Under the pieces are notes generated by a model, which saw only the letters and a program-made list of their open reading frames with translations, had not been told where the DNA came from and did not search any database. This document shows positions 53,109 to 63,715 of a DNA stretch of 64,000 nucleotides, piece after piece. Each line of letters begins with the position of its first letter. Positions within the stretch are counted from its first letter, which is position 1. This DNA is from an uncultured Pseudomonadota bacterium (GTDB lineage Bacteria; Oederibacteriota; Muellerivitia; Muellerivitales; Muellerivitaceae). Made by a program: the position numbers and the translations under genes. Where the stretch lies: positions 352,001 through 416,000 of the forward strand of contig CAVYRH010000019.1 in assembly GCA_963770835.1 (NCBI GenBank), given 5' to 3'.

Positions 53109-53723
53109 TTAGCTTTTATGGTTTGCCGCGTCAAGTTGCTGGATTCGATGAAGTGTAAAAAGAATTTCATTATCCGTGGGCCTGTCCGTGGGATCTTTCC
53201 CGATGTACTTGAAACGGATAATCTTGTTCGAGTCGATGATGAGGGTTGTCGGCCGGGCGATATCTTTACCATCATGCCCATTCGGATGGCGGGCCCCATA
53301 GGCGTCGATGACCTGGAGATTCGGATCGGACAAAAGGGGAAAGGGAAAACGCCATTGTTGGTTGAAGTCCGCGGAGTCCTGGACGGAATCCGCGCTGACC
53401 GCCGCGACGGTGGCGTTCTGGGCGAGAAACTTGGGATAATCCTCTTTTAAACCGGCCAATTGCCCCTGACAGGCGCTGCACCAGGCGCCACGGTAAAGAA
53501 TAAGGACCAGGTACCAGCCAGGCTTCAAGTCCGCCTGCTTCACAAGATGGCCCGTGCTGTCCATCAGGGAAAAATCATAGGCTTTGTCCCCAGGAACAAG
53601 GCCCCCGGGTTTGGAGGTGGCCGGTTGGGACGATTGGACACAACCCTGGAACAAACTCACCGTTCCAACCAAACCAAGGGTTACTAATAGGAAGAGTGAA
53701 ATTCTAATTTTCCTCAGTGCCAC
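53109..53723 (-). CDS. Exported peroxiredoxin-like AhpC/TSA protein
   Basis: YRGAWCSAC, FPLLSDP, ARPTTLIID; N-terminal signal with a possible lipobox (FQG-C). Confidence 0.8.
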   Translation of the reverse strand: MALRKIRISLFLLVTLGLVGTVSLFQGCVQSSQPATSKPGGLVPGDKAYDFSLMDSTGHLVKQADLKPGWYLVLILYRGAWCSACQGQLAGLKEDYPKFLAQNATVAAVSADSVQDSADFNQQWRFPFPLLSDPNLQVIDAYGARHPNGHDGKDIARPTTLIIDSNKIIRFKYIGKDPTDRPTDNEILFTLHRIQQLDAANHKS

Positions 53724-53767
53724 TTGGCCTTCTTTCTTTTTTGGGAATCAATTTCGAGGTTCATCCA

Positions 53768-53814
53768 ATAGTTTCCCAAAGGCGTTGACATTGTCAATTG
53801 CCATTCCCAATAAT
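53768..53814. promoter_or_regulatory. Back-to-back sigma70-type promoters around a TTGACA-T-TGTCAA palindrome
   Basis: Plus strand: TTGACA(53785)-N18-AATAAT. Minus strand: TTGACA(53797)-N18-AACTAT. Confidence 0.5.
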
Positions 53815-53840
53815 ACCCCACTAAGGAGCTTAAGCCGTTC

Positions 53841-54137
53841 ATGAATTTTTTCCGCAAAAACCTGTTCCCCTTCACGGCCTTTGCCTTCGCGACCTTCCTT
53901 TCGGTCCTGGCGATCGAGGGTTTTCACCATCACGATGACGGCCTTGAGGGGCACGACGATTGTTCCATCTGTAGTTGGCAGGTCAACGGTTCCCAGGCTC
54001 CCTCGACTCCTGCTCCCCCTCTTTTATTTCAAGCGCTTTTATTATTCATCGCTCTTTTCATCTTTACGCCTTCCCCTCCTTCTACTTTCGTTTCTTTTTC
54101 GACTTCCGGTAGGGCCCCGCCGTCCATCCTCCTGTAA
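53841..54137 (+). CDS. DUF2946-like (CruR/CutF-type) leader peptide 1 with His cluster, CxxC and RAPP motif
   Basis: TAAGGAG RBS; hydrophobic N-terminus, EGFHHHDD...HDDCSIC, C-terminal SGRAPPSILL; upstream of a TonB-dependent receptor. Confidence 0.85.
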   Translation: MNFFRKNLFPFTAFAFATFLSVLAIEGFHHHDDGLEGHDDCSICSWQVNGSQAPSTPAPPLLFQALLLFIALFIFTPSPPSTFVSFSTSGRAPPSILL

Positions 54138-54309
54138 CGAATCTTCGGCTTCCAAAAGTTGGAGGCCGCGCTCGCTTTTCAGGGGGATTTTTCTTTGAGT
54201 TCCGCTCAATCGTAAAACTCCCATAACAACCAATCCATTTAGTTTTCGTTCCGGCGTCGGCCCGCATTCTGGATCGACCGGGCGAAATTCCAAACACCAG
54301 GGGAGAAGA

Positions 54310-56772
54310 ATGACCACTTATAACAAGATGCTTTTACTGTTGTTGGCGCTTTTCAGTTTTTGTACAACAAGAGCCTTGGCCACCGTCAATGGCGCCCTTT
54401 CGGGCACCGTTTTGGACGACAAGGGCGTGGCCGTAGCGAATGCTAAGGTGACAATCACGGGAAATGGCATTGAAAAGGATTTAACCTCTTCGGCTACGGG
54501 GACTTTCCAGGCTTTCCCGCTGACAATCGGGGATTATGTGGTGTCTGTTACCGCCGATGGATTTGTTCCTTATAAGTCCACGGTGACGGTCGCGGCAAGC
54601 AATACGCCCCTGGAAGTGCGCTTATCGCCGGGGGAAATGCAAATGAAGGTAACCGCCAAACGCAACGAAATCACCTCCGCTCCCGACAGCAGCCGGTCCC
54701 TGGACCAAAGCGATATTGAGCAGCTTCCCCAGGGCAACACTCAGGATATCCGCCATTTGTTATATGACACGACACCCGGTTTTTGGGAGGGGCCTTTTGG
54801 CCAGGTCTTTACCCGCGGCAACCACGCCAATTTGCAGTACCAGGTCGACGGCATTCAATTGCCTGACTCGGTGGGCGGTTCCTTCGGGGAGGCCTTTACC
54901 CCGGTCAATATTGACCATATGGAAATTTTAACGGGCGGCCTCCAGCCGGAATTCGGCAACCGTTTGGCCGGCGTTATTAATATCGTCACAAAATCCGGCA
55001 GCACCGAACAAGGCGGGGAGATCGGGACCAGTTTCGGGTCTTATAACCAGACCCAGTCCTACGCCACCTACGGCGGTGCGGATGTTTCGGGCGCCTGGCA
55101 TTACCTTCTCTCGGTCAACGCCTCGTCGACCGGAAGGGGCTTGGACACGCCGGCGCCGGCGGACATCAACGCCGACCAGAACGGCGGAAGCGAGGATGTG
55201 GTCCACGACCAGGAATATAGTTCTGATGAATTCATGAAATTGGATTGGCAGGCCGACAACTTCAATAAATTCATCCTGTCCGCCTTCGTCGAGAACAAAT
55301 TCAACCAGATACCGGATTACGACAGTTCCTTCGACCCCGGCGGCCCTAATTTTGCCTATTTTAACGGAAATTTAGATCCCCTCGGGAACGGCCCCTTTAA
55401 TTACGTTCCTTCCACCACCAACGATACGCAGGCCGAAGCCAACAGGTATGTGGAGTTCTCATGGGTCCACACCTTTGACGACGAATCCTTCATTCAGATA
55501 TCGCCGTATTTCAAAGAGTCCAACCTGACCTTTAACGGCGATCCGGCGAATGACTTGGCTTTCGCTGGAAACCCCGCAAACAATTCAATCGCGGCCAATT
55601 GGCTCAACAATGACGGCGTCACCCTCCTCGATTCTTCCTATTCACAGGACCGCACCAGCGACAATTACGGGACCCAGGTGGATTACACCTGGCGGCCGGA
55701 TTCCAACAACCTGATCAAGGCGGGGACCCAGCTTCTTTTTACCCAGTCCTCCGGCCCGGTTTCCGTTCTTGAGGTTTCCAACACTGGATCCGGTCCGGTG
55801 ACATTACCCCCCGGCATCGACACTTCCATGGATCAGGGCTTTGAAGAAGGCGTTTATGTCCAGGACGAGCTGACTTTGGCCAAGTGGCTTGTCTTGAGCG
55901 GCGGCGTGCGGTTTGACGCCATTCAATACACGTTGAATATCGGGGGCGCCAGCGGCCAGGTTCAAGATGACGACAGCAATTGGGGGCCACGGATCGGATT
56001 GAGCATCCTGGCTTCGGACGACACTAAATTCCACTTGTTCTACGGCAAACAATTCATGCCGGCTCCCCCGGAAGACCTGAAGGATACTTTCGTTGCCTTA
56101 GGTGTGGGGCAAGCGCTGGTCCCTTATAACATCAAGGCCGAAAAGGACGATTACTTCGAGGCGGGTTGGGCCCAACAGATGGGCACACACCTTTTCACCC
56201 TGAACGGCTACTTGAAGCTAGCCACCAACATGCTGGACGAGTCCCAGCTGTTGAATACCGGCATTGACCAGCCCTTCAATTACGCGCAGGGTTATGCCCA
56301 AGGCATCGAAGTCTCCTTACGCGGCAAATTGGATAAGGATTGGTCTGACTTCGCCAACTATACTTATAGCCTCGCCGAAGGGGAGGGGATCAGCGGGGGG
56401 GATTTCGCCTTCACGCAGGCATTGCTCCCGCCTCAAGGGATCTATCAACCCCTGGACCATGCCGAAATTCATACGGTTAATTTCGGGCTGACCTATAACC
56501 CGGGGGACCTTTGGATCACGGGGACGGGTTATTTCGGCGGCGGCCTGAGCTCCGGGCCGGGCCTCGCCGAGAGGCTGCCGAGCCACTTCACGTATGACGC
56601 CACCATCGGTTACGCCTTTAAGAAAGGCACCGGCCTCAACGGCTTGAAGGCCAGCTTGGATGTGATCAACATCGGCAATTATCCCTATGTCATTTTTATC
56701 AATGACGGCTACAACGGCAATCATTATGAAAATGGCCGGGAATTCGTCTTCCGATTGGCCGAGCAAATCTAG
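54310..56772 (+). CDS. TonB-dependent receptor with N-terminal carboxypeptidase-regulatory-like domain
   Basis: Signal peptide, LSGTVLDDKGVAVANAKV, plug (RGNH...YQVDGI...GGLQPEFGNRLAGVINIVTKSG), barrel ending GREFVFRL. Confidence 0.92.
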   Translation: MTTYNKMLLLLLALFSFCTTRALATVNGALSGTVLDDKGVAVANAKVTITGNGIEKDLTSSATGTFQAFPLTIGDYVVSVTADGFVPYKSTVTVAASNTPLEVRLSPGEMQMKVTAKRNEITSAPDSSRSLDQSDIEQLPQGNTQDIRHLLYDTTPGFWEGPFGQVFTRGNHANLQYQVDGIQLPDSVGGSFGEAFTPVNIDHMEILTGGLQPEFGNRLAGVINIVTKSGSTEQGGEIGTSFGSYNQTQSYATYGGADVSGAWHYLLSVNASSTGRGLDTPAPADINADQNGGSEDVVHDQEYSSDEFMKLDWQADNFNKFILSAFVENKFNQIPDYDSSFDPGGPNFAYFNGNLDPLGNGPFNYVPSTTNDTQAEANRYVEFSWVHTFDDESFIQISPYFKESNLTFNGDPANDLAFAGNPANNSIAANWLNNDGVTLLDSSYSQDRTSDNYGTQVDYTWRPDSNNLIKAGTQLLFTQSSGPVSVLEVSNTGSGPVTLPPGIDTSMDQGFEEGVYVQDELTLAKWLVLSGGVRFDAIQYTLNIGGASGQVQDDDSNWGPRIGLSILASDDTKFHLFYGKQFMPAPPEDLKDTFVALGVGQALVPYNIKAEKDDYFEAGWAQQMGTHLFTLNGYLKLATNMLDESQLLNTGIDQPFNYAQGYAQGIEVSLRGKLDKDWSDFANYTYSLAEGEGISGGDFAFTQALLPPQGIYQPLDHAEIHTVNFGLTYNPGDLWITGTGYFGGGLSSGPGLAERLPSHFTYDATIGYAFKKGTGLNGLKASLDVINIGNYPYVIFINDGYNGNHYENGREFVFRLAEQI

Positions 56773-56783
56773 TAGAAAGGTGG

Positions 56784-56858
56784 GGCGCCGGAGGGTTTAA
56801 TCCCCCTACGGCGTCTTAACCCCAAAGGGTTCACGCCCGGACCCTTTAGGGTTAAGAC
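56784..56858. repeat. Two adjacent stem-loops between the receptor and exbB
   Basis: GGCGCCGGAGGG/CCCTACGGCGTC and a 20-bp stem GTCTTAACCCCAAAGGGTTC/GGACCCTTTAGGGTTAAGAC. Confidence 0.7.
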
Positions 56859-56887
56859 ACACTCAATTTTCAAAAAAGGAAAAAGAA

Positions 56888-57523
56888 ATGAACGGTTTAT
56901 GGGACGGTTTTAAATTTATTTTCCGGGGCGGGTTCATGATGATCCCCCTCCTGGCGTCTTCCTTGATCGCCTTGACGGTGATCGTCGACCGCTGGAAGGC
57001 GTATCACCAGCGGTATAAAACGCCCCCGGACTTCATCAACGGCGTTTTGGAAAAAGCGCGGGCGGGCAACCTCCCCGAGGCCATCCAAGCCTGTCAAGGG
57101 AAGGACATCCCCGTGGCCGCGGTCCTGAAGGCGGGGCTGGAGCACTTCAAGAATCCCACTGCGGAAATGGAGATCGCCATGAAGAATGAGGGCGAGAGCT
57201 GGGTGCCGGTATTGGAAAAACGGATACACGTTTTGGACACGACCATCACTATCGCGCCCCTGATGGGGCTTCTGGGAACCATTATCGGCATGATGGGTTC
57301 CTTTAAAGTGCTTACTCAAAGCGGTGTGGATGATCCCTATTCCATCACCGGAGGCATCGCCGAGGCCCTGATTGCCACGGCCACCGGTCTTGTCATCGCC
57401 CTGGTTTGCGTCATCGCCCACAACTACTTCAATACCCTCGTCAAGAATTCCATTTACGAGATGGAATCCGCCGCCTCGCGCCTGTTGGAAGCCCGGTTGG
57501 CTTCCGAAAGGAAGAAGGGCTGA
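56888..57523 (+). CDS. exbB: ExbB/MotA/TolQ proton channel
   Basis: GGFMMIPL, APLMGLLGTIIGM, GGIAEALIATATGL. Confidence 0.92.
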   Translation: MNGLWDGFKFIFRGGFMMIPLLASSLIALTVIVDRWKAYHQRYKTPPDFINGVLEKARAGNLPEAIQACQGKDIPVAAVLKAGLEHFKNPTAEMEIAMKNEGESWVPVLEKRIHVLDTTITIAPLMGLLGTIIGMMGSFKVLTQSGVDDPYSITGGIAEALIATATGLVIALVCVIAHNYFNTLVKNSIYEMESAASRLLEARLASERKKG

Positions 57524-57933
57524 TGCAAATCCGTCAAAGGCCCTTTAAGCGGGTCCGCATCGAAATCATCCCCATGATCGACGTTATCTTCTTTTTGCTG
57601 GTGTTCTTTATGGTAACGTCACTGGCCATGACCCGTATCAACAGCATCAAGGTGGTGCTGCCCAAGACGTCGGGTGCGGCTGAAACCATGAAGCAAAATA
57701 TCATCCTCACCATCAAGAAGGACGGTTCCATGCTGGTCAACAAAACGCCTGTCACCCTCGATACCCTGGGAAGCCGGCTGGTTTACGAGATGCAAGCCGA
57801 TCCACAAGGCGTAGTCATTGTGAACGCGGATGAGGACGCCGGTTATGGCGTGGTGGTGGCGGCCATGGCCAAGGCCAAGGAAGCCGGAGTGCGCAAGTTC
57901 GCCCTGGCCGCCGAAGCCGAAAAGGGAAAGTGA
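57523..57933 (+). CDS. exbD: ExbD/TolR biopolymer transporter
   Basis: IEIIPMIDVIFFLLVFFMV, VNADEDAGYG; ATG at 57523 overlaps the exbB stop. Confidence 0.92.
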   Translation: MQIRQRPFKRVRIEIIPMIDVIFFLLVFFMVTSLAMTRINSIKVVLPKTSGAAETMKQNIILTIKKDGSMLVNKTPVTLDTLGSRLVYEMQADPQGVVIVNADEDAGYGVVVAAMAKAKEAGVRKFALAAEAEKGK

Positions 57934-58535
57934 CCTTGTCGCCCTTTTACACGAACCCGGCCGAGGAACAAAAACGCCTTTATCGATCGGCGGGGATCGC
58001 TTTGGGATTGGAGCTGCTTTTCTTCCTAGCCCTTGGGATAAGCCATCTGCCGCTTTTCCATAACCCCTTTGATTCGGCCCAATATTTGGACGCCCAAATC
58101 CTGCAGTTACCTGAAAACTCCCATTTAACGGGGGCCCAGGCCACGACACCCGACGACGAAATCGTCTTTAACCCCCACCACAAGGTTCCCAAGAAGGTAA
58201 TCAAGAAAACTCCGCCTCCCCCGGCCCCAGAGCAAAACAAGGTTGAGGCCAGCCCCAGTTTGGGGCCCACCCATGGGCCCGTGGCGCTTTATTCTCCGTC
58301 ACCGGTCATCCCCAACTACCTAAGGGACCAGAATTTGAAAACCAGCGTGGTGATTGAGTTCCTCATCACGGCCCAGGGGCAGATGACACCCCGGCTGTTG
58401 GAATCCAGCGGCAACAACGAGTTGGATTCCATCGCCTTAAACACGGTTGCTAAATGGCAGTTCAAACCCGCGGCCCAGGACAACGTGCCGATCGACTCTA
58501 AAACCCGGCTCCGTATCCTTTTTGAGGTCTATTAA
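57930..58535 (+). CDS. tonB: TonB family energy transducer
   Basis: N-terminal TM, Pro/Lys-rich linker, ESSGNNELDSIALNTVAKWQFKPA. Confidence 0.88.
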   Translation: MTLSPFYTNPAEEQKRLYRSAGIALGLELLFFLALGISHLPLFHNPFDSAQYLDAQILQLPENSHLTGAQATTPDDEIVFNPHHKVPKKVIKKTPPPPAPEQNKVEASPSLGPTHGPVALYSPSPVIPNYLRDQNLKTSVVIEFLITAQGQMTPRLLESSGNNELDSIALNTVAKWQFKPAAQDNVPIDSKTRLRILFEVY

Positions 58536-58536
58536 G

Positions 58537-58875
58537 ATGCCTTTATACTCTTCGAATTCTTCCGGCAAAAAAATTGGGACATCCGATCCCAAGGATTGGA
58601 TGCTTCTCTTCGTCTTTCCCGTGGCGGTTTTTTTCATCCTGGCTGGCTCAGCCGAGGGATTTATCCATCATCACCATCACAGCCCCACCGAGGATTCGGA
58701 TTGTGCCTATTGCGGATTCCATAACGCCGTCACCCAGTCGGACTACACGGTCAATCTTCCTCAGATAGTTCCCTTCCTTCCCTTGGTTCTCATCTTCGCC
58801 TTCCCCTTCCTGCCCTTTCATTCTTCCCGTTTTTTCACCCATTCCGGCCTGTCCCCGCCGGCCCTTTTCCAATAA
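58537..58875 (+). CDS. DUF2946-like leader peptide 2 with His cluster, CxxC and LSPP variant motif
   Basis: EGFIHHHHH...DCAYC...SGLSPPALFQ aligns with leader 1; start at 58537 or at 58600 (AAGGA RBS). Confidence 0.8.
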   Translation: MPLYSSNSSGKKIGTSDPKDWMLLFVFPVAVFFILAGSAEGFIHHHHHSPTEDSDCAYCGFHNAVTQSDYTVNLPQIVPFLPLVLIFAFPFLPFHSSRFFTHSGLSPPALFQ

Positions 58876-59035
58876 AGGGAAGACGCGCCGAAAGAGTGGA
58901 ATTTATTCCAGCCCTGATCCTTTGAAGTACCGCCCAGGGTCCCATTCCTGAAAACCTTCGCCCATCCCGTTTTCCCGCAGGCCAATCGCCAATTCCGACA
59001 ACCTTTACATCTCTCAATTTAAGGAAGGAGCAAAA

Positions 59036-59725
59036 ATGAAAGTTCTTGAAGTCAAAAACTTGAAAAAGTCTTACCTAACACCCGAGGGTAATACTCACAG
59101 GGTCGTTGATATCGCCCATTTCTCCCTGGATTCGGGAGACCAAATGGCGCTGGCCGGGGAGAGTGGATCGGGCAAAACGACCTTCTTGCACCTCATTTCG
59201 GGTGTGCTAAAGCCCGACAGCGGCGAAATCAGCCTTGATGGAAAAAGGATGGACCTGCTTCCGGAAGCCGGACGGGATAGCCTGCGGTCCAGCCTGCTGG
59301 GTTATGTCTTTCAAAATTTCAACCTCCTGCAGGGAATGACTTCCCTGGAGAATGTTGAACTGGCCATGCGGTTCGGCATGGGAGTGGATAAGGAAAGGGC
59401 CGTTTCGCTTTTAAACCGGATGGGCCTTTCGGAGAGGCTCCACCACTATCCCCGCCAGCTTTCCATGGGGCAGCAGCAGCGGGTGGCCGTGGCACGGGCC
59501 CTGGCCAACCGCCCCAAATTGGTCTTAGCCGATGAGCCCACAGCCCACCTGGACCATGTCCGGGGCAAGGAAGCCGTCACCTTGATGCGGGAAGTCTGCC
59601 GGGAATTCGGCGCCGCCTTGTTGGTGGTAAGCCATGACCGGGAAGTATTGTCAAACTTCAAGCAGGTTGAGCGCTTTGACCGGCTGAACCGTGCGCTTCA
59701 CGCGCGCCAGGAGGCAAAATCATGA
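59036..59725 (+). CDS. ABC transporter ATP-binding protein (LolD/MacB-type)
   Basis: GESGSGKT, LSMGQQQRVAVARAL, LADEPT, VSHD. Confidence 0.93.
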   Translation: MKVLEVKNLKKSYLTPEGNTHRVVDIAHFSLDSGDQMALAGESGSGKTTFLHLISGVLKPDSGEISLDGKRMDLLPEAGRDSLRSSLLGYVFQNFNLLQGMTSLENVELAMRFGMGVDKERAVSLLNRMGLSERLHHYPRQLSMGQQQRVAVARALANRPKLVLADEPTAHLDHVRGKEAVTLMREVCREFGAALLVVSHDREVLSNFKQVERFDRLNRALHARQEAKS

Positions 59726-60978
59726 ATACACTGATTTTTTTGGCCCGGCACAGCTTGAGGCGCCACGCGGTCTCCACTTTGGTGACCGCCCTGTCGGCGG
59801 CCCTGGCGGTGGGCCTGACCTTGGCCGTCTTTGGCCTGGCCGCCCAAACCCGGGCCGCCTTCATGGGCGGGGCCGGTGGTTTTGACGCCGTCTTGGGCGC
59901 CAGAGGAAGCCAGCTCCAGCTGGTTTTGAACGCCGTTTTCCAGCTGGAAACCTCGCCGGGCAATATTCCCTGGAGCCTCTACGAGACGGTGAAAAACGAC
60001 CCCCGGGTCGCCGAGGCGGTGCCTTACGCCGTCGGGGACAATTACTACGGCTTCCGGATATTGGGGACAACCCTCGCGGTTCGGGATGAGCTCCGGAATT
60101 CCTCCGGCAAGCCCCTGGAACTGGAAGAGGGGGGGCGCTGGTTCAACGATGAGGACCGGGAAGCGGTGGTTGGATCGATCACGGCCCAGAGAAGCGGCCT
60201 CCAGGTCGGCAGCTCTTTCCGGCCCTACCACGGCCTGGCTTTCGACCCCAGCATGCAGCACGAGGAGGTCTACCAGGTGGTGGGCATTCTCAAGCCGTCC
60301 AATACGCCGATCGACCGGGTCCTCTTCATTCCCCTGGAGGGCTTCTACCGGATCAAGGGCCATGTTCTCCGGGGATCGGGTAAGGATTATGTACCGAAGG
60401 AAAACCAGCCCATTCCCGACGAGGACAAGGAGCTCAGCTCCGTCCTGCTGAAGCTCAAAAGCCCCCAGGCGGGTTTCAACATGGATTACACCATCAACAA
60501 ACAGGGCAAGGTGGCTACCTTGGCCTGGCCCATCGGGCGGGTTATGGCCGACCTTTTCAACCGGCTGGGTTGGATGAACCGAATCCTGGTCCTAGTGGCC
60601 TACTTGGTCATGGTCGTGGCCGCCTGCTCGATCCTGGCCGCCCTTCACAACACCATGCGGGAGAGGCGCAGGGAATTTGCCATCCTGCGGGCCTTGGGCG
60701 CGAAACGGCGCACCGTGTTCGCCTCGGTGGTGACCGAAGCCGCCTGCATCGCCGCCTTGGGCGCCTTGGGGGGCTATTTGGTTTACGGTCTTTTGTTTTT
60801 CCTGGCGGCGGGGCTGGTCCGGGCCCAGACAGGGGTGGTCGTGGACCTCTTCTTTTTCCATCCGGCCCTTATCGGCGTGCCCATCGGCATGACGGTTTTA
60901 GGCGCCTTAGCCGGTGTCTTGCCGGCTTATCAAGCCTATTCCACTGACGTGGCCGGGAATTTGGAACCCCATTCGTAA
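59722..60978 (+). CDS. ABC transporter permease (FtsX/MacB-type, ZrgC-like)
   Basis: GARGSQLQLVLNAVF, GDNYYGFRILGT, PYHG...HEE, ERRREFAILRALGA. Confidence 0.9.
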   Translation: MNTLIFLARHSLRRHAVSTLVTALSAALAVGLTLAVFGLAAQTRAAFMGGAGGFDAVLGARGSQLQLVLNAVFQLETSPGNIPWSLYETVKNDPRVAEAVPYAVGDNYYGFRILGTTLAVRDELRNSSGKPLELEEGGRWFNDEDREAVVGSITAQRSGLQVGSSFRPYHGLAFDPSMQHEEVYQVVGILKPSNTPIDRVLFIPLEGFYRIKGHVLRGSGKDYVPKENQPIPDEDKELSSVLLKLKSPQAGFNMDYTINKQGKVATLAWPIGRVMADLFNRLGWMNRILVLVAYLVMVVAACSILAALHNTMRERRREFAILRALGAKRRTVFASVVTEAACIAALGALGGYLVYGLLFFLAAGLVRAQTGVVVDLFFFHPALIGVPIGMTVLGALAGVLPAYQAYSTDVAGNLEPHS

Positions 60979-60990
60979 GGAGGAATCGAC

Positions 60991-61482
60991 ATGAGACTTT
61001 CATATTTGGTTTTCCTGGCTTGGATATTTTTATTCACCGGTCCCGCGATACGGGGTTATGGCGAAACTCCCCCAGACGGGAAAGCGCCGGTAACGGAATC
61101 CGCCAAGCCCGGTTTTGAACCCCAGGCCCCCCACGGGGGCCTGCTGGTGGACGCAGGGGATGATTTCGCCCACGTGGAAATGGTCTTTGATTCCGCGGAG
61201 GGGACACTATCGGCCTACATGCTGGACGGAGAGGCCGAAGAAGCAGTCCCCCTTAAGCAACCTGTCATTTTGGTTCGTTTAATGAAACCGGCTCGGACCT
61301 TAAAACTGAAGGCGGTGGTCAGCCCCTTAAGCGGGGAAAAACCCGGGGCCACCTCTTCTTATGCCTTGACAGACCCTTCGCTGAAGGGCCTTTCACAGTT
61401 GAAGGGCGTATTGGTATCGGTGGATTTTAACGGCTCGGTCTTTAAAAACCTTGCCTTCCAATTTCCGCAAAAAAAGGAATAG
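60991..61482 (+). CDS. Exported protein with PHGG...H motif (putative metal chaperone)
   Basis: AGGAGG RBS, signal peptide, APHGGLLVDAGDDFAHVEMV. Confidence 0.7.
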   Translation: MRLSYLVFLAWIFLFTGPAIRGYGETPPDGKAPVTESAKPGFEPQAPHGGLLVDAGDDFAHVEMVFDSAEGTLSAYMLDGEAEEAVPLKQPVILVRLMKPARTLKLKAVVSPLSGEKPGATSSYALTDPSLKGLSQLKGVLVSVDFNGSVFKNLAFQFPQKKE

Positions 61483-61490
61483 GATCACGA

Positions 61491-62324
61491 ATGAAAACCG
61501 GCTTTAACAGGATGATGAAAAAGTCCAAAGAGATGATGAAAAAGTCCAAAGAATGGACTTTTTCATATCTATGTCGCGAACCACCCCTTAAAAAACAGGG
61601 GGTTAAAAACGGTTCGCTCCTAGCCCGTGGCTGTAGACAGGGTGTAAAAACACTTTTTCAGCACCCTGTTAAAAAAGGAATGGTTTACGGGGCTGTCCTT
61701 GGTTTCTTTACCCTGGCCGCCGGAGCCCCGATTTTCGGCCAGAACTTCTGGAAATACCAGGCACCGGCCACCGATGTCCCGGCCGCCGAAGGATCCGGGG
61801 TGGCCAATGACGCCAAGCTCCAGGCCCTCAGCCAGATCAGGGATCCCGTCGTCCAAATCAACCCGGCAGACCTGGAGGGAAAACCCCTCGTGGATTTCAC
61901 CCGCTTGGCCTGTTTCAATTACGACTACCCGGATGAGGACGGGGGCGCGTTGGCCCCTAAAAAATCCAAAAGGAAAAAACCGGGAATCCCTGTTTCGGTT
62001 TCGGCCTTGAATGGGACAACCTTGGCCGTTCCCGGCTTCATGATCCCAATGGACCAGGATGCGGACGGGGACACCTGCACTTATTTCATCCTGGCCCGCA
62101 ACCAGATGACCTGCTGTTTCGGCGTGCCTCCGGGCCTGAACGAGTGGGTGAGCGTGCGGATGGAGAAGGGTAAAACCGCCAAGCTGGATATGGACCGCCC
62201 AGTTGTGGTGGTGGGGACCCTGGAAGTCGGGGAGATTTTCGACCCCGATTCGGGCTGGAGTTTCTACCGGATGAGGGGCGAGAAGGTCATCGTCGCAGGG
62301 AAAAAGAAAGTTTGGTTCCAATGA
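61491..62324 (+). CDS. DUF3299 protein 1 (N-terminus extended by an in-frame MITE)
   Basis: LNG...VPGFMIPMD...FILARNQMTCCFGVPPGLNEWV. Confidence 0.8.
   Translation: MKTGFNRMMKKSKEMMKKSKEWTFSYLCREPPLKKQGVKNGSLLARGCRQGVKTLFQHPVKKGMVYGAVLGFFTLAAGAPIFGQNFWKYQAPATDVPAAEGSGVANDAKLQALSQIRDPVVQINPADLEGKPLVDFTRLACFNYDYPDEDGGALAPKKSKRKKPGIPVSVSALNGTTLAVPGFMIPMDQDADGDTCTYFILARNQMTCCFGVPPGLNEWVSVRMEKGKTAKLDMDRPVVVVGTLEVGEIFDPDSGWSFYRMRGEKVIVAGKKKVWFQ
61508..61668. mobile_element. MITE-like element, copy 2 (inverted; 140 bp plus a 21-bp tandem duplication)
   Basis: Perfect TTAA direct repeats at 61504-61507 and 61669-61672; the reverse complement aligns end to end with 33714-33853. Confidence 0.88.
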
Positions 62325-62333
62325 GGGGGAGTC

Positions 62334-62966
62334 ATGAAAAAACAGCCTATTAAACTGAAATGGTCGGTGTTGCTGGTATCCCTTTTCCTGGCGGCCCTTC
62401 CCTTCCTGAACCTTACAGCCTTCGGACAAGGGGCCGCGCCCAGCGCCAATCCGGTGGTTCCCTACGCCACGGCCGTCCCGGCACCCATCGACCTCAATTC
62501 GGCGCCCATCACGGTTTACCCACTTGTGGACGACCATTCGCTGGTGACTTGGGACACCCTCTCCCATTTCGACTATGACTCCCCCAGCATCGACGAGGAG
62601 ATTGACTCGAAACTGCGCCTCAAGAAGAAAAAATACCCCATCCCCGGCTTCATCAAGCTGCTAAATGGCGCCCCCGTCGCAGTAGTGGGCTTCATGATCC
62701 CCCTAGACACGAACGAGGCGGGGGACAAGACGACCTCCTTCATCCTGGCCCGCAGTCAGGCCACTTGTTGCTACGGCATCACTCCCAAGATGAATGAGTG
62801 GATGTTCGTGCAAATGAAAAAGGGGAAACAGGCCGAGACGATGATGGACATGCCCGTGACGGCTTTCGGCACCCTGGCCGTGGGCGAGGAAAAAAAGTCC
62901 GATACGGGCTGGACCCTTTACCGGATGGTTTCGGATAAGGTCACCGTTCCCAAAGTCAATTGGTAA
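62334..62966 (+). CDS. DUF3299 protein 2
   Basis: Signal peptide; LNGAPVAVVGFMIPLD...FILARSQATCCYG...NEW. Confidence 0.8.
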   Translation: MKKQPIKLKWSVLLVSLFLAALPFLNLTAFGQGAAPSANPVVPYATAVPAPIDLNSAPITVYPLVDDHSLVTWDTLSHFDYDSPSIDEEIDSKLRLKKKKYPIPGFIKLLNGAPVAVVGFMIPLDTNEAGDKTTSFILARSQATCCYGITPKMNEWMFVQMKKGKQAETMMDMPVTAFGTLAVGEEKKSDTGWTLYRMVSDKVTVPKVNW

Positions 62967-63715
62967 GGATGAAGGAGGCTTCGATGGGTGGCATACACGG
63001 TCCAACGGTTAAGAAAAGCGGTAACGGGGAAAACCCTTCCGCTTCCCGCATCCCAACGCAGGATTTGAAATACTGGGCCATGATGGTCTTGAGCCTCTTC
63101 TGGTTCGTGTTCCTGACCTATTACCTGCTCAAGGCCAACAGCCGCCCCTCCGTCCTTCAATGGTGGCAAACGCAAAGCAAGGCGGAAGAAACGGTTCCAT
63201 CGGCGCCCCCCAAGGCAGACCCCGTTTCCGGCATTCCCTCAAAACCAGCCTTGAACATCCCCTACCCGAAAGAGGGAGATTATTACCGGCTCAATTTCGA
63301 CGTCCTGTCCGGGTTCCCCGCGGGGACGCCGGACATTTCGAATCCGGCGGTTGACCCCCGGAAGAGGGCCAAAATGGCCAGCTTCAATATCCCCGGCCCG
63401 GTGAAGGTCTTGAATGGGCAAAAAATATCCGTTGTTGGTTTCATGATCCCCATGACCATGGACAAGGAAAGTGTTTATAGTTTTATCCTGGCTCAAAGCC
63501 GGATGACCTGCTGTTACGGGATGGTTCCCCAACTCAACCAATGGATTTACGTCACCATGGACCCGGGGAAGCCAACGTCACAACTGATGGACGTTCCCAT
63601 CACCGTTTTTGGGACCCTGAGCGTGGGCATGAAGATCGACAAGGACAGCATGGGTTGGTGCCTTTACCGCATGACCTCCGGCAAGGTGGATATGCCCAAA
63701 CAATCCTGGTTTTAG
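62960..63715 (+). CDS. DUF3299 protein 3 (N-terminal TM anchor)
   Basis: LNGQKISVVGFMIPM...FILAQSRMTCCYG...NQW; start probably 62984, after AAGGAGG. Confidence 0.8.
   Translation: MVRMKEASMGGIHGPTVKKSGNGENPSASRIPTQDLKYWAMMVLSLFWFVFLTYYLLKANSRPSVLQWWQTQSKAEETVPSAPPKADPVSGIPSKPALNIPYPKEGDYYRLNFDVLSGFPAGTPDISNPAVDPRKRAKMASFNIPGPVKVLNGQKISVVGFMIPMTMDKESVYSFILAQSRMTCCYGMVPQLNQWIYVTMDPGKPTSQLMDVPITVFGTLSVGMKIDKDSMGWCLYRMTSGKVDMPKQSWF

Follow-up and report, generated by a model that had tools for sequence, protein, structure and literature searches.

A DUF2946-like leader of candidate division FCPU426 with leucine in place of the arginine of RAPP-type arrest motifs

Introduction

Can a leader peptide of the ribosome-arrest type regulate genes when the arginine (R) of its RAPP motif is replaced by leucine (L)? 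This question is raised by a stretch of DNA of 64,000 nucleotides (here called the window) with two similar small open reading frames (ORFs), of which leader 1 ends in a RAPP motif and leader 2 in LSPP. RAPP-type arrest is explained by an R side chain locked in a pocket of the 23S rRNA, and every laboratory substitution of this residue fails. The side chain stacks on Psi2504 and forms five hydrogen bonds to 23S rRNA (PMC10951233). According to section 7 of PMC12992588, all 19 substitutions of this R raise read-through in ApcA, ApdA and ApdP, and the same is reported for SecM; a change of the alanine (A) of the motif to serine (S) is partly permissive. The same source describes arrest of CruR in the PURE system with a toeprint, and its abolition by R139A. 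The importance of the R in RAPP-type arrest, which the original prediction for this locus had named, thus agrees with the mutagenesis of ApcA, ApdA, ApdP, SecM and CruR as given there. Natural leaders with L for R and with conserved tail, PP and spacing are a ready-made test of regulation without R: either proline pausing without R can regulate genes, or LSPP peptides have a second job.

Results

Two leaders in a putative metal-uptake operon

The window is part of contig C19 of a genome of 4.58 Mb (96% complete) of candidate division FCPU426, in which rho and efp genes are both present. A promoter-like site, leader 1, a TonB-dependent receptor gene, exbB, exbD, tonB, leader 2, a spacer and an ABC/DUF3299 gene set follow each other on the + strand (Table 1). 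The spacer after leader 1 has 172 nt. The promoter-like site ahead of leader 1 is likely the start of the entire transcription unit, and leader 2 is most likely an internal ORF of this long operon, since its ATG lies one base past the tonB stop (TAA G ATG), no terminator-like site was found between tonB and leader 2, and the promoter-like match over the leader 2 start is weak (9/12).

Table 1. Positions of genes and sequence elements of the operon in the window
Feature	Position	Strand	Remarks
Promoter-like site	53785..53814	+	TTGACA-18-AATAAT, 11/12; consensus match alone
Leader 1	53841..54137	+	98 aa; HHH, C41xxC44, 46 residues, RAPP, 4 codons
TonB-dependent outer-membrane receptor	54310..56772	+	PF00593 4.6e-24, Plug, CarboxypepD_reg
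exbB	56888..57523	+	PF01618 1.4e-31
exbD	57523..57933	+	PF02472 1.4e-30
tonB	57930..58535	+	PF03544 9.1e-12
Leader 2	58537..58875	+	112 aa ORF; PF11162 17.4 bits, E 0.0075
C-rich, G-poor stretch	58760..58839	+	GC skew -0.65, 3' half of leader 2
Hairpin across leader 2 stop codon	58845..58892	+	5' arm = last codons
Spacer from leader 2 to ABC ATPase	58876..59035	+	160 nt; 59035 is its last base
ABC ATPase	59036..59725	+	start 59036
FtsX/MacB-type permease	59722..60978	+	
163-aa protein	60991..61482	+	no Pfam or NCBIfam match
Three DUF3299 proteins	61491..62324, 62334..62966, 62960..63715	+	

The genes behind leader 2 (59036..63715) look like a Zrg-like metal importer and probably encode one. 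ZrgABCDE is a Zur-regulated zinc importer of Vibrio, in which ZrgE is a DUF3299 protein, ZrgC the ATPase and ZrgB the permease (PMC9817125 Table 1). Zinc appears the likelier ligand of leader 2, with copper possible, because of its sensor of five histidines (H) and CxxC, the DUF3299 proteins, which are of the ZrgE family, and the ABC ATPase and permease, which correspond to ZrgC and ZrgB. The 163-aa protein is secreted-looking and syntenic between the permease and DUF3299 genes, with 85% identical aa in the metagenome contig L065 and 41% in L039 and L044; it may replace the metal-binding ZrgA.

Leader 2 starts with basic residues (K11, K12, K19), an uncharged hydrophobic run (residues 22-39) follows, and a second hydrophobic segment lies between CxxC and tail, as read by eye from the translation. 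The H run HHHHH occupies residues 44-48 (58666-58680) and C56-A-Y-C59 forms the CxxC (58702-58713). L105-S-P-P108 is encoded by CTG TCC CCG CCG (58849-58860), at the place where relatives have R[ASGD]PP. The tail reads RFFTHSG-LSPP-ALFQ, the four codons for ALFQ being followed by TAA at 58873-58875. Leader 1, with 32% identical aa over 91 residues (E 2e-6), ends in TSG-RAPP-SILL, the R of its motif being R91. LSPP therefore replaces RAPP at the homologous position, as had been proposed; a script counted 45 residues from CxxC to the motif in leader 2 and 46 in leader 1, matching the earlier figures, and both translations have the described SG before the motif and exactly four codons after PP. 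A third paralogue on contig C26 of the same genome (L002:1486-1776, - strand) has 96 aa, ends in LG-RAPP-QNFL and lies 49 nt upstream of a gene for a 380-aa outer-membrane protein of no family. A fourth PF11162 match in this genome (L004) contains a stop and no ORF and was discarded as a chance match.

Relation to known arrest leaders

PF11162 (DUF2946) was the sole Pfam match of either leader. Leader 1 scored 21.3 bits (E 4.7e-4) and leader 2 as given in Table 1, both below the gathering cut-off of 23.7 bits. The alignment of leader 2 stops at position 108 of the 117 profile positions; in leader 1 and the C26 paralogue RAPP is aligned through position 117. Among 117 aligned relatives, 47 matched PF11162 at E <= 0.01 (best 4.4e-6), no other family was matched by more than one member, and both C columns of the CxxC are invariant. 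One of these relatives (alignment A6) weakly matches DUF2607 (E 0.0024), the ZrgD family of the Vibrio Zrg zinc operon; by sequence, ZrgD itself may be a leader of the CruR/CutF kind.

These matches support an assignment of both leaders as divergent members of the CruR/CutF (DUF2946-like) metal-sensing ribosome-arrest leaders. The DUF2946 prototype is CruR (Bp2923) of Bordetella pertussis, which, according to Roy et al. 2022 (PMC9426467), carries a CXXC, then 45 residues and a RAPP with three residues behind it, and is followed by a spacer of 162 nt. In the model of that paper, Rho cannot reach a C-rich rut region as long as a ribosome is arrested at RAPP; copper acting via the CXXC frees the stall, and transcription then stops before the gene of the TonB-dependent transporter. 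The double change R139A+A140S (read out on bfrG) or PP>AA abolishes downstream expression, and the family is described as mostly found in Proteobacteria (PMC9426467). CutF of Rhodobacter capsulatus ends in PEPEGPPPRL, by itself not a strong stall; its stalling is induced by copper and sensitive to EF-P, and it unfolds a stem-loop that covers the ribosome-binding site of the next gene (PMC8456105, PMC9973294, bioRxiv 10.1101/2025.02.05.636593). The arrest-leader reading of the original prediction is in line with the sub-threshold DUF2946 matches and with the CXXC-45-RAPP geometry of CruR. Its view of arrest-type metal-sensing leaders held, that of leader 2 as an independent leader did not, given the start next to the tonB stop within a longer operon. 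Since both leaders match this published family, the idea of two such leaders is a rediscovery: the switch itself has been described (PMC9426467, PMC9973294), and what is new here is the L.

Like that of CruR, the ORF of leader 2 is small and encodes a CXXC and, some 45 residues on, an xxPP motif shortly before the stop; its apparent N-terminal hydrophobic segment may correspond to the export or hydrophobic segment of CruR. Its spacer is of similar length (160 nt, 162 nt in CruR), C is frequent and G rare in its 3' half, and probable metal-uptake genes lie downstream, leader 1 even preceding a TonB-dependent receptor. It differs from CruR in having LSPP instead of RAPP, a Pfam score below the cut-off, the H run and the second hydrophobic segment, and a place inside an operon directly after tonB; moreover, it heads ABC/FtsX/DUF3299 genes, which point to zinc rather than copper, and its host belongs to candidate division FCPU426. 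CutF, which is likewise placed with DUF2946, shares with leader 2 a C-terminal proline motif without R two residues before PP (...EGPPPRL), and its weak, metal-conditional stall can be likened to the pause proposed below for leader 2. Leader 2 also passes the filters of the CutF-like list of PMC9973294 (<150 aa, PP in the last 15 residues, a same-strand gene within 1000 nt). In contrast to leader 2, however, CutF has a CxxxC and controls a multicopper oxidase via a stem-loop over the ribosome-binding site; behind leader 2 no pairing of spacer and ribosome-binding site beats shuffled sequences. The CutF stall turns on a detoxifying gene, whereas leader 2 heads an importer. ApdA, ApdP, ApcA and SecM resemble leader 2 as small exported or membrane proteins with a C-terminal motif upstream of a regulated gene (PMC7897499, PMC10951233, PMC12992588), but their R is irreplaceable and makes rRNA contacts where leader 2 has L, and leader 2 is without a link to Sec or YidC genes.

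Conservation of the leucine in orthologous leaders

Three database proteins with 62-72% identical aa to leader 2 (P0002, P0003, P0004) all end in HSGLSPPxLFQ, so that L is found in four of four members of this clade; P0005, the next relative (43% identical aa), has the tail HSGRAPPAVLS. The alignment of close orthologues, which the original prediction had named as a check, therefore showed conservation of LSPP and no reversion in the three. The metagenome contig L065 (15 kb) is fully syntenic with the window: leader 1 with RAPP, receptor, exbBD, tonB, leader 2 with LSPP, ABC ATPase, permease, the 163-aa protein and three DUF3299 genes. The L codon is CTG in the window and CTT in L065. Two Logan contigs from runs of another study (X3 and X5) read CTG, with zero differences across the codon; two more (X2 and X7) do not span it.

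For the tail (residues 98-112), comparison of window and L065 gave four synonymous and two non-synonymous differences (pS 0.35, pN 0.06). The H/CxxC part had a pN of 0.02 (pS 0.40) and the hydrophobic segment before the tail a pN of 0.27, all of these figures being small numbers from two sequences. The tail of leader 2 is under purifying selection. In the LSPP clade PP, the four codons behind it and the spacing of 45 residues are all conserved, and the genes downstream of leader 2 are intact in both LSPP genomes (window and L065).

An error of sequencing or assembly as the source of the L, or decay of the ORF to a pseudogene, has next to no probability: all that speaks for it is that CGG and CTG differ by one base, and the CTT codon of L065, the two identical runs of another study, the presence of L in all four clade members and the low pN/pS of metal-binding part and tail speak against it. 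Of the explanations that the original prediction had offered for the L, a read error is thus excluded, because the orthologue has a synonymous codon and the contigs of another study read CTG, and simple decay has become unlikely.

A second clade (P0070, P0071, P0115, P0116; 33-51% identical aa among themselves) ends in [HR]GLSPPxL, with the motif 43-44 residues after CxxC and with scores near the profile threshold. A search with L-type representatives added two proteins, both to the P0071 clade; it found no relatives of P0084 and P0095, and P0082 and P0085 stood outside this search. In a quick maximum-likelihood tree (117 rows x 95 columns) six changes were needed for L. The clade of the window is nested in a well-supported group with seven R-type proteins; since this L clade sits among R-type proteins, supported branches force at least two changes. 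A tree in which the 12 L rows form one clade was nevertheless not rejected by an AU test (p 0.61) and even had the higher score. An independent origin of L-type tails was therefore not upheld by the tree, and pairwise similarity is the sole argument for it.

Distribution of motif variants among related leaders

The search profile was built from the three paralogues and four database relatives; four of these seven sequences carry LS at the motif. It had matches in 31 of 61 related genomes, including 27 of 30 of the same family, the genome of the window being left out of the latter fraction. A re-scan of the fetched loci gave 63 distinct ORFs. Apart from one that is cut by a contig end and one that is degenerate, these (61 leaders) have xxPP 44-48 residues after CxxC; one ORF call that runs into the next gene was retained in this count. 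The motifs of the 61 leaders in 31 genomes were RSPP (34), RAPP (21), RGPP (2), and RDPP, KSPP, HDPP and LSPP (one each), where the HDPP leader is a weak match and the single LSPP leader is that of the window. R is hence found at the first position in 58 of 61 leaders from 31 candidate division FCPU426 genomes, L in the window's alone. As RSPP is the commonest motif, S at the second position is normal in this lineage and solely the L is odd. The spacing of CxxC and motif is 44-46 residues in 60 of the 61, and exactly four residues follow PP in 47. A further natural non-R residue, lysine (K), occurs in a receptor-type leader of genome G021 (L037:5543-5831), which ends in ...YTGKSPPIFS.

A search of 1.84 billion protein representatives with the same profile yielded 109 proteins, with RAPP in 54, RSPP in 33, LSPP in 6, RDPP in 4 and RGPP in 3; LGPP, HGPP, HAPP, TSPP, NAPP and PRPP were found once each, and three more R-type motifs lie further from the end. 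L is the commonest non-R residue among these representatives and is paired with S or G, never with A; all L-type matches are near threshold (E about 1e-4), where the LS in the query profile aids a match. The layout of H run, CxxC, 44-46 residues, xxPP and mostly four more residues recurs in the 61 ORFs and the 109 representatives and is thus not due to chance. No LSPP variant of such leaders was found among the listed matches of a text search of the ribosome literature, in the main text of PMC9973294 or in the supplementary text of this paper and of PMC9426467; the sequence logos in Fig. S6 of PMC9973294 may show one.

Avoidance of the motif variants was compared in 3567 ORFs of at least 120 aa, a crude set from the genome of the window that served as a proxy of its proteome. 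RAPP was observed 4 times (19 expected), RSPP 3 times (14), RGPP 4 times (19) and RDPP once (10), with ratios of 0.10-0.21, and KSPP 3 times (16; 0.19). RxPP is thus avoided in candidate division FCPU426 as well, as has been reported for other phyla. LSPP occurred 16 times with 29 expected, which is ordinary for xSPP. LSPP is therefore not specially avoided and unlikely to impede translation by itself. By analogy with the tested peptides, in which the R is irreplaceable and makes rRNA contacts, LSPP probably cannot use the RAPP mechanism.

Candidate RNA elements around leader 2

The C-rich stretch in leader 2 has one comparable skew minimum within 53600-59400, which lies in leader 1 (54000-54079, -0.68). 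It resembles the C>G rut region of cruR as described in PMC9426467; such a skew also follows from phenylalanine, leucine, proline and serine codons. The hairpin across the stop codon was predicted earlier with a 6-bp stem (CCCTTT 58862-58867 / TCCAAT / AAAGGG 58874-58879). This stem is present and spans the stop, but its exact register is not the one favoured by ViennaRNA, which instead pairs UUUUCC with GGAAGA, a few bases off, and adds an outer GC stem. The local fold of 52 nt has -15.6 kcal/mol (z = -1.96), and 3% of 200 mononucleotide shuffles fold equally well. L065 has a similar hairpin (-13.3 kcal/mol, z = -2.7), and nine aligned ABC-type leaders have a hairpin of weak energy at the same place, with one double change that preserves a pair. 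Over the 281 nt of 58780-59060 the fold does not exceed shuffles in stability (z = 0.29), no Rfam family matched within 53600-59200 at E <= 1, and the spacer 58876..59035 has no intrinsic terminator.

The spacer contains the box GGGAAGAC right after the stop (58876-58884) and its complement GTTTTCCC near 58970-58978. In eight ABC-type RAPP spacers (L041, L035, L036, L037, L039, L042, L043, L044) a post-stop box AACGGGAAAAC complements GTTTTCCCGTT about 100 nt downstream, and in all eight this pairing is stronger than in shuffled sequences (z -2.3 to -4.5). The two LSPP spacers retain 7-8 bp of it (GGGAAGAC / GTTTTCCC), which do not beat shuffles. Pairing of the spacer with the ribosome-binding site of the ABC gene never beats shuffles in 10 of 10 sequences (z -0.84 to +0.58). 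An attenuator-like relay, in which the last codons would pair with the post-stop box, this with the box about 100 nt on and that with the ribosome-binding site, was rejected, its last pairing being within the shuffle range.

A 10-pair inverted repeat, CATCCGATCC-CAA-GGATTGGATG, occupies 58580-58602, within the N-terminal part of leader 2 that is poorly conserved, and its end falls on an internal ATG (M22). L065 retains 8 of its pairs, one pair being altered on both sides.

Discussion

The account that we favour, with a chance somewhat short of even, is that leader 2 belongs, as a divergent member, to the CruR/CutF family and that its LSPP slows the ribosome weakly at the Pro-Pro, in a CutF-like and probably EF-P-sensitive way. 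With the ribosome on P107/P108, the CxxC/H segment would be just out of the exit tunnel and the second hydrophobic segment inside it. Binding of metal to the nascent chain, probably of zinc and possibly of copper, would alter the dwell time of the ribosome at this site. From the usual footprint, a paused ribosome would cover the last codons, which follow closely on the C-rich stretch and form the 5' side of the hairpin across the stop; the ABC genes would thereby be controlled either at transcription, by Rho as in the CruR model, or at translation. Leader 1 with its RAPP would gate the whole unit, and leader 2 would need to be just a low-gain second, internal gate; replacement of the R may be tolerated because leader 1 already gates the unit. 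The congener G002, a genome of the same genus, has no leader 2: its tonB stop is followed by 84 nt and the ABC ATPase start (L075:1732-1821, contig C72), and its ABC/DUF3299 genes appear simply to continue the receptor operon. The second gate therefore seems dispensable, which fits relaxed demands on leader 2. A precedent for a proline stall without R within the family is CutF. Against a weak pause stand the irreplaceable R of every tested RAPP-type peptide, the absence of leader 2 from G002, ribosome-binding-site pairings that never beat shuffles and an LSPP that is not specially avoided in the proteome.

The need for R in all tested cases and the undepleted LSPP would also fit a leader that has been disarmed, an explanation that we consider unlikely but worth serious weight. 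LSPP would no longer pause, R having changed to L after the ABC operon came behind tonB under leader 1; the ORF would persist either for its product, a small membrane protein that binds metal, or as a spacer for translational coupling, its tail being retained for a reason other than stalling. The absence of leader 2 from G002 and its start one base past the tonB stop agree with such a history. In both published models, however, loss of arrest switches the downstream genes off, and here these are intact and conserved; in addition, tail, PP, 45-residue spacing and four trailing codons are under purifying selection, and the distant second clade retains a GLSPP tail. That same conservation in two clades, together with the conserved H and G that precede the motif in both and the rank of L as commonest non-R residue of the 109 representatives, always with S or G, could also be read as a core of full strength, in which G-L-S-P-P arrests without R through other contacts in the tunnel or peptidyl-transferase centre and so forms a second class of cores. 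This we regard as very unlikely, as none of 19 replacements, L included, works in ApcA, ApdA and ApdP (PMC12992588, section 7), LSPP is tolerated 16 times in longer ORFs of the genome, and L and S at the motif columns of the search profile favoured the near-threshold matches.

A more general idea, rather doubtful at present, is that G-L-S-P-P is an R-independent stalling core which arose more than once in DUF2946-like leaders, and that L-type leaders are a separate regulatory class. If true, the 'irreplaceable' R of RAPP would be bypassed in nature, and L-type leaders might, for example, pause in a metal-induced instead of a metal-relieved manner or respond at another threshold.

The leaders described here extend the CruR/CutF family to an uncultured soil phylum, in which a genome can carry as many as six copies (G024), and to two leaders in series within one operon. 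Relatives with matching genes come from metagenomes of soil and peat. Putative ABC importers of the Zrg-like kind and an outer-membrane protein that resembles porins join the targets of the family. An ABC ATPase gene lies downstream of 9 of the 61 leaders with spacers of 151-191 nt, a TonB-dependent receptor gene downstream of 16 (21-304 nt) and the gene of the 380-aa outer-membrane protein downstream of 27, with spacers of 39-50 nt in 24 of these. In other genera of the family Muellerivitaceae (L035, L036, L039, L041, L042, L044) the operon order is reversed: a leader with ABC and DUF3299 genes comes first, then a leader with the receptor or outer-membrane protein. The short spacers of 39-50 nt before the 380-aa protein hint at a different read-out, e.g. 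translational coupling.
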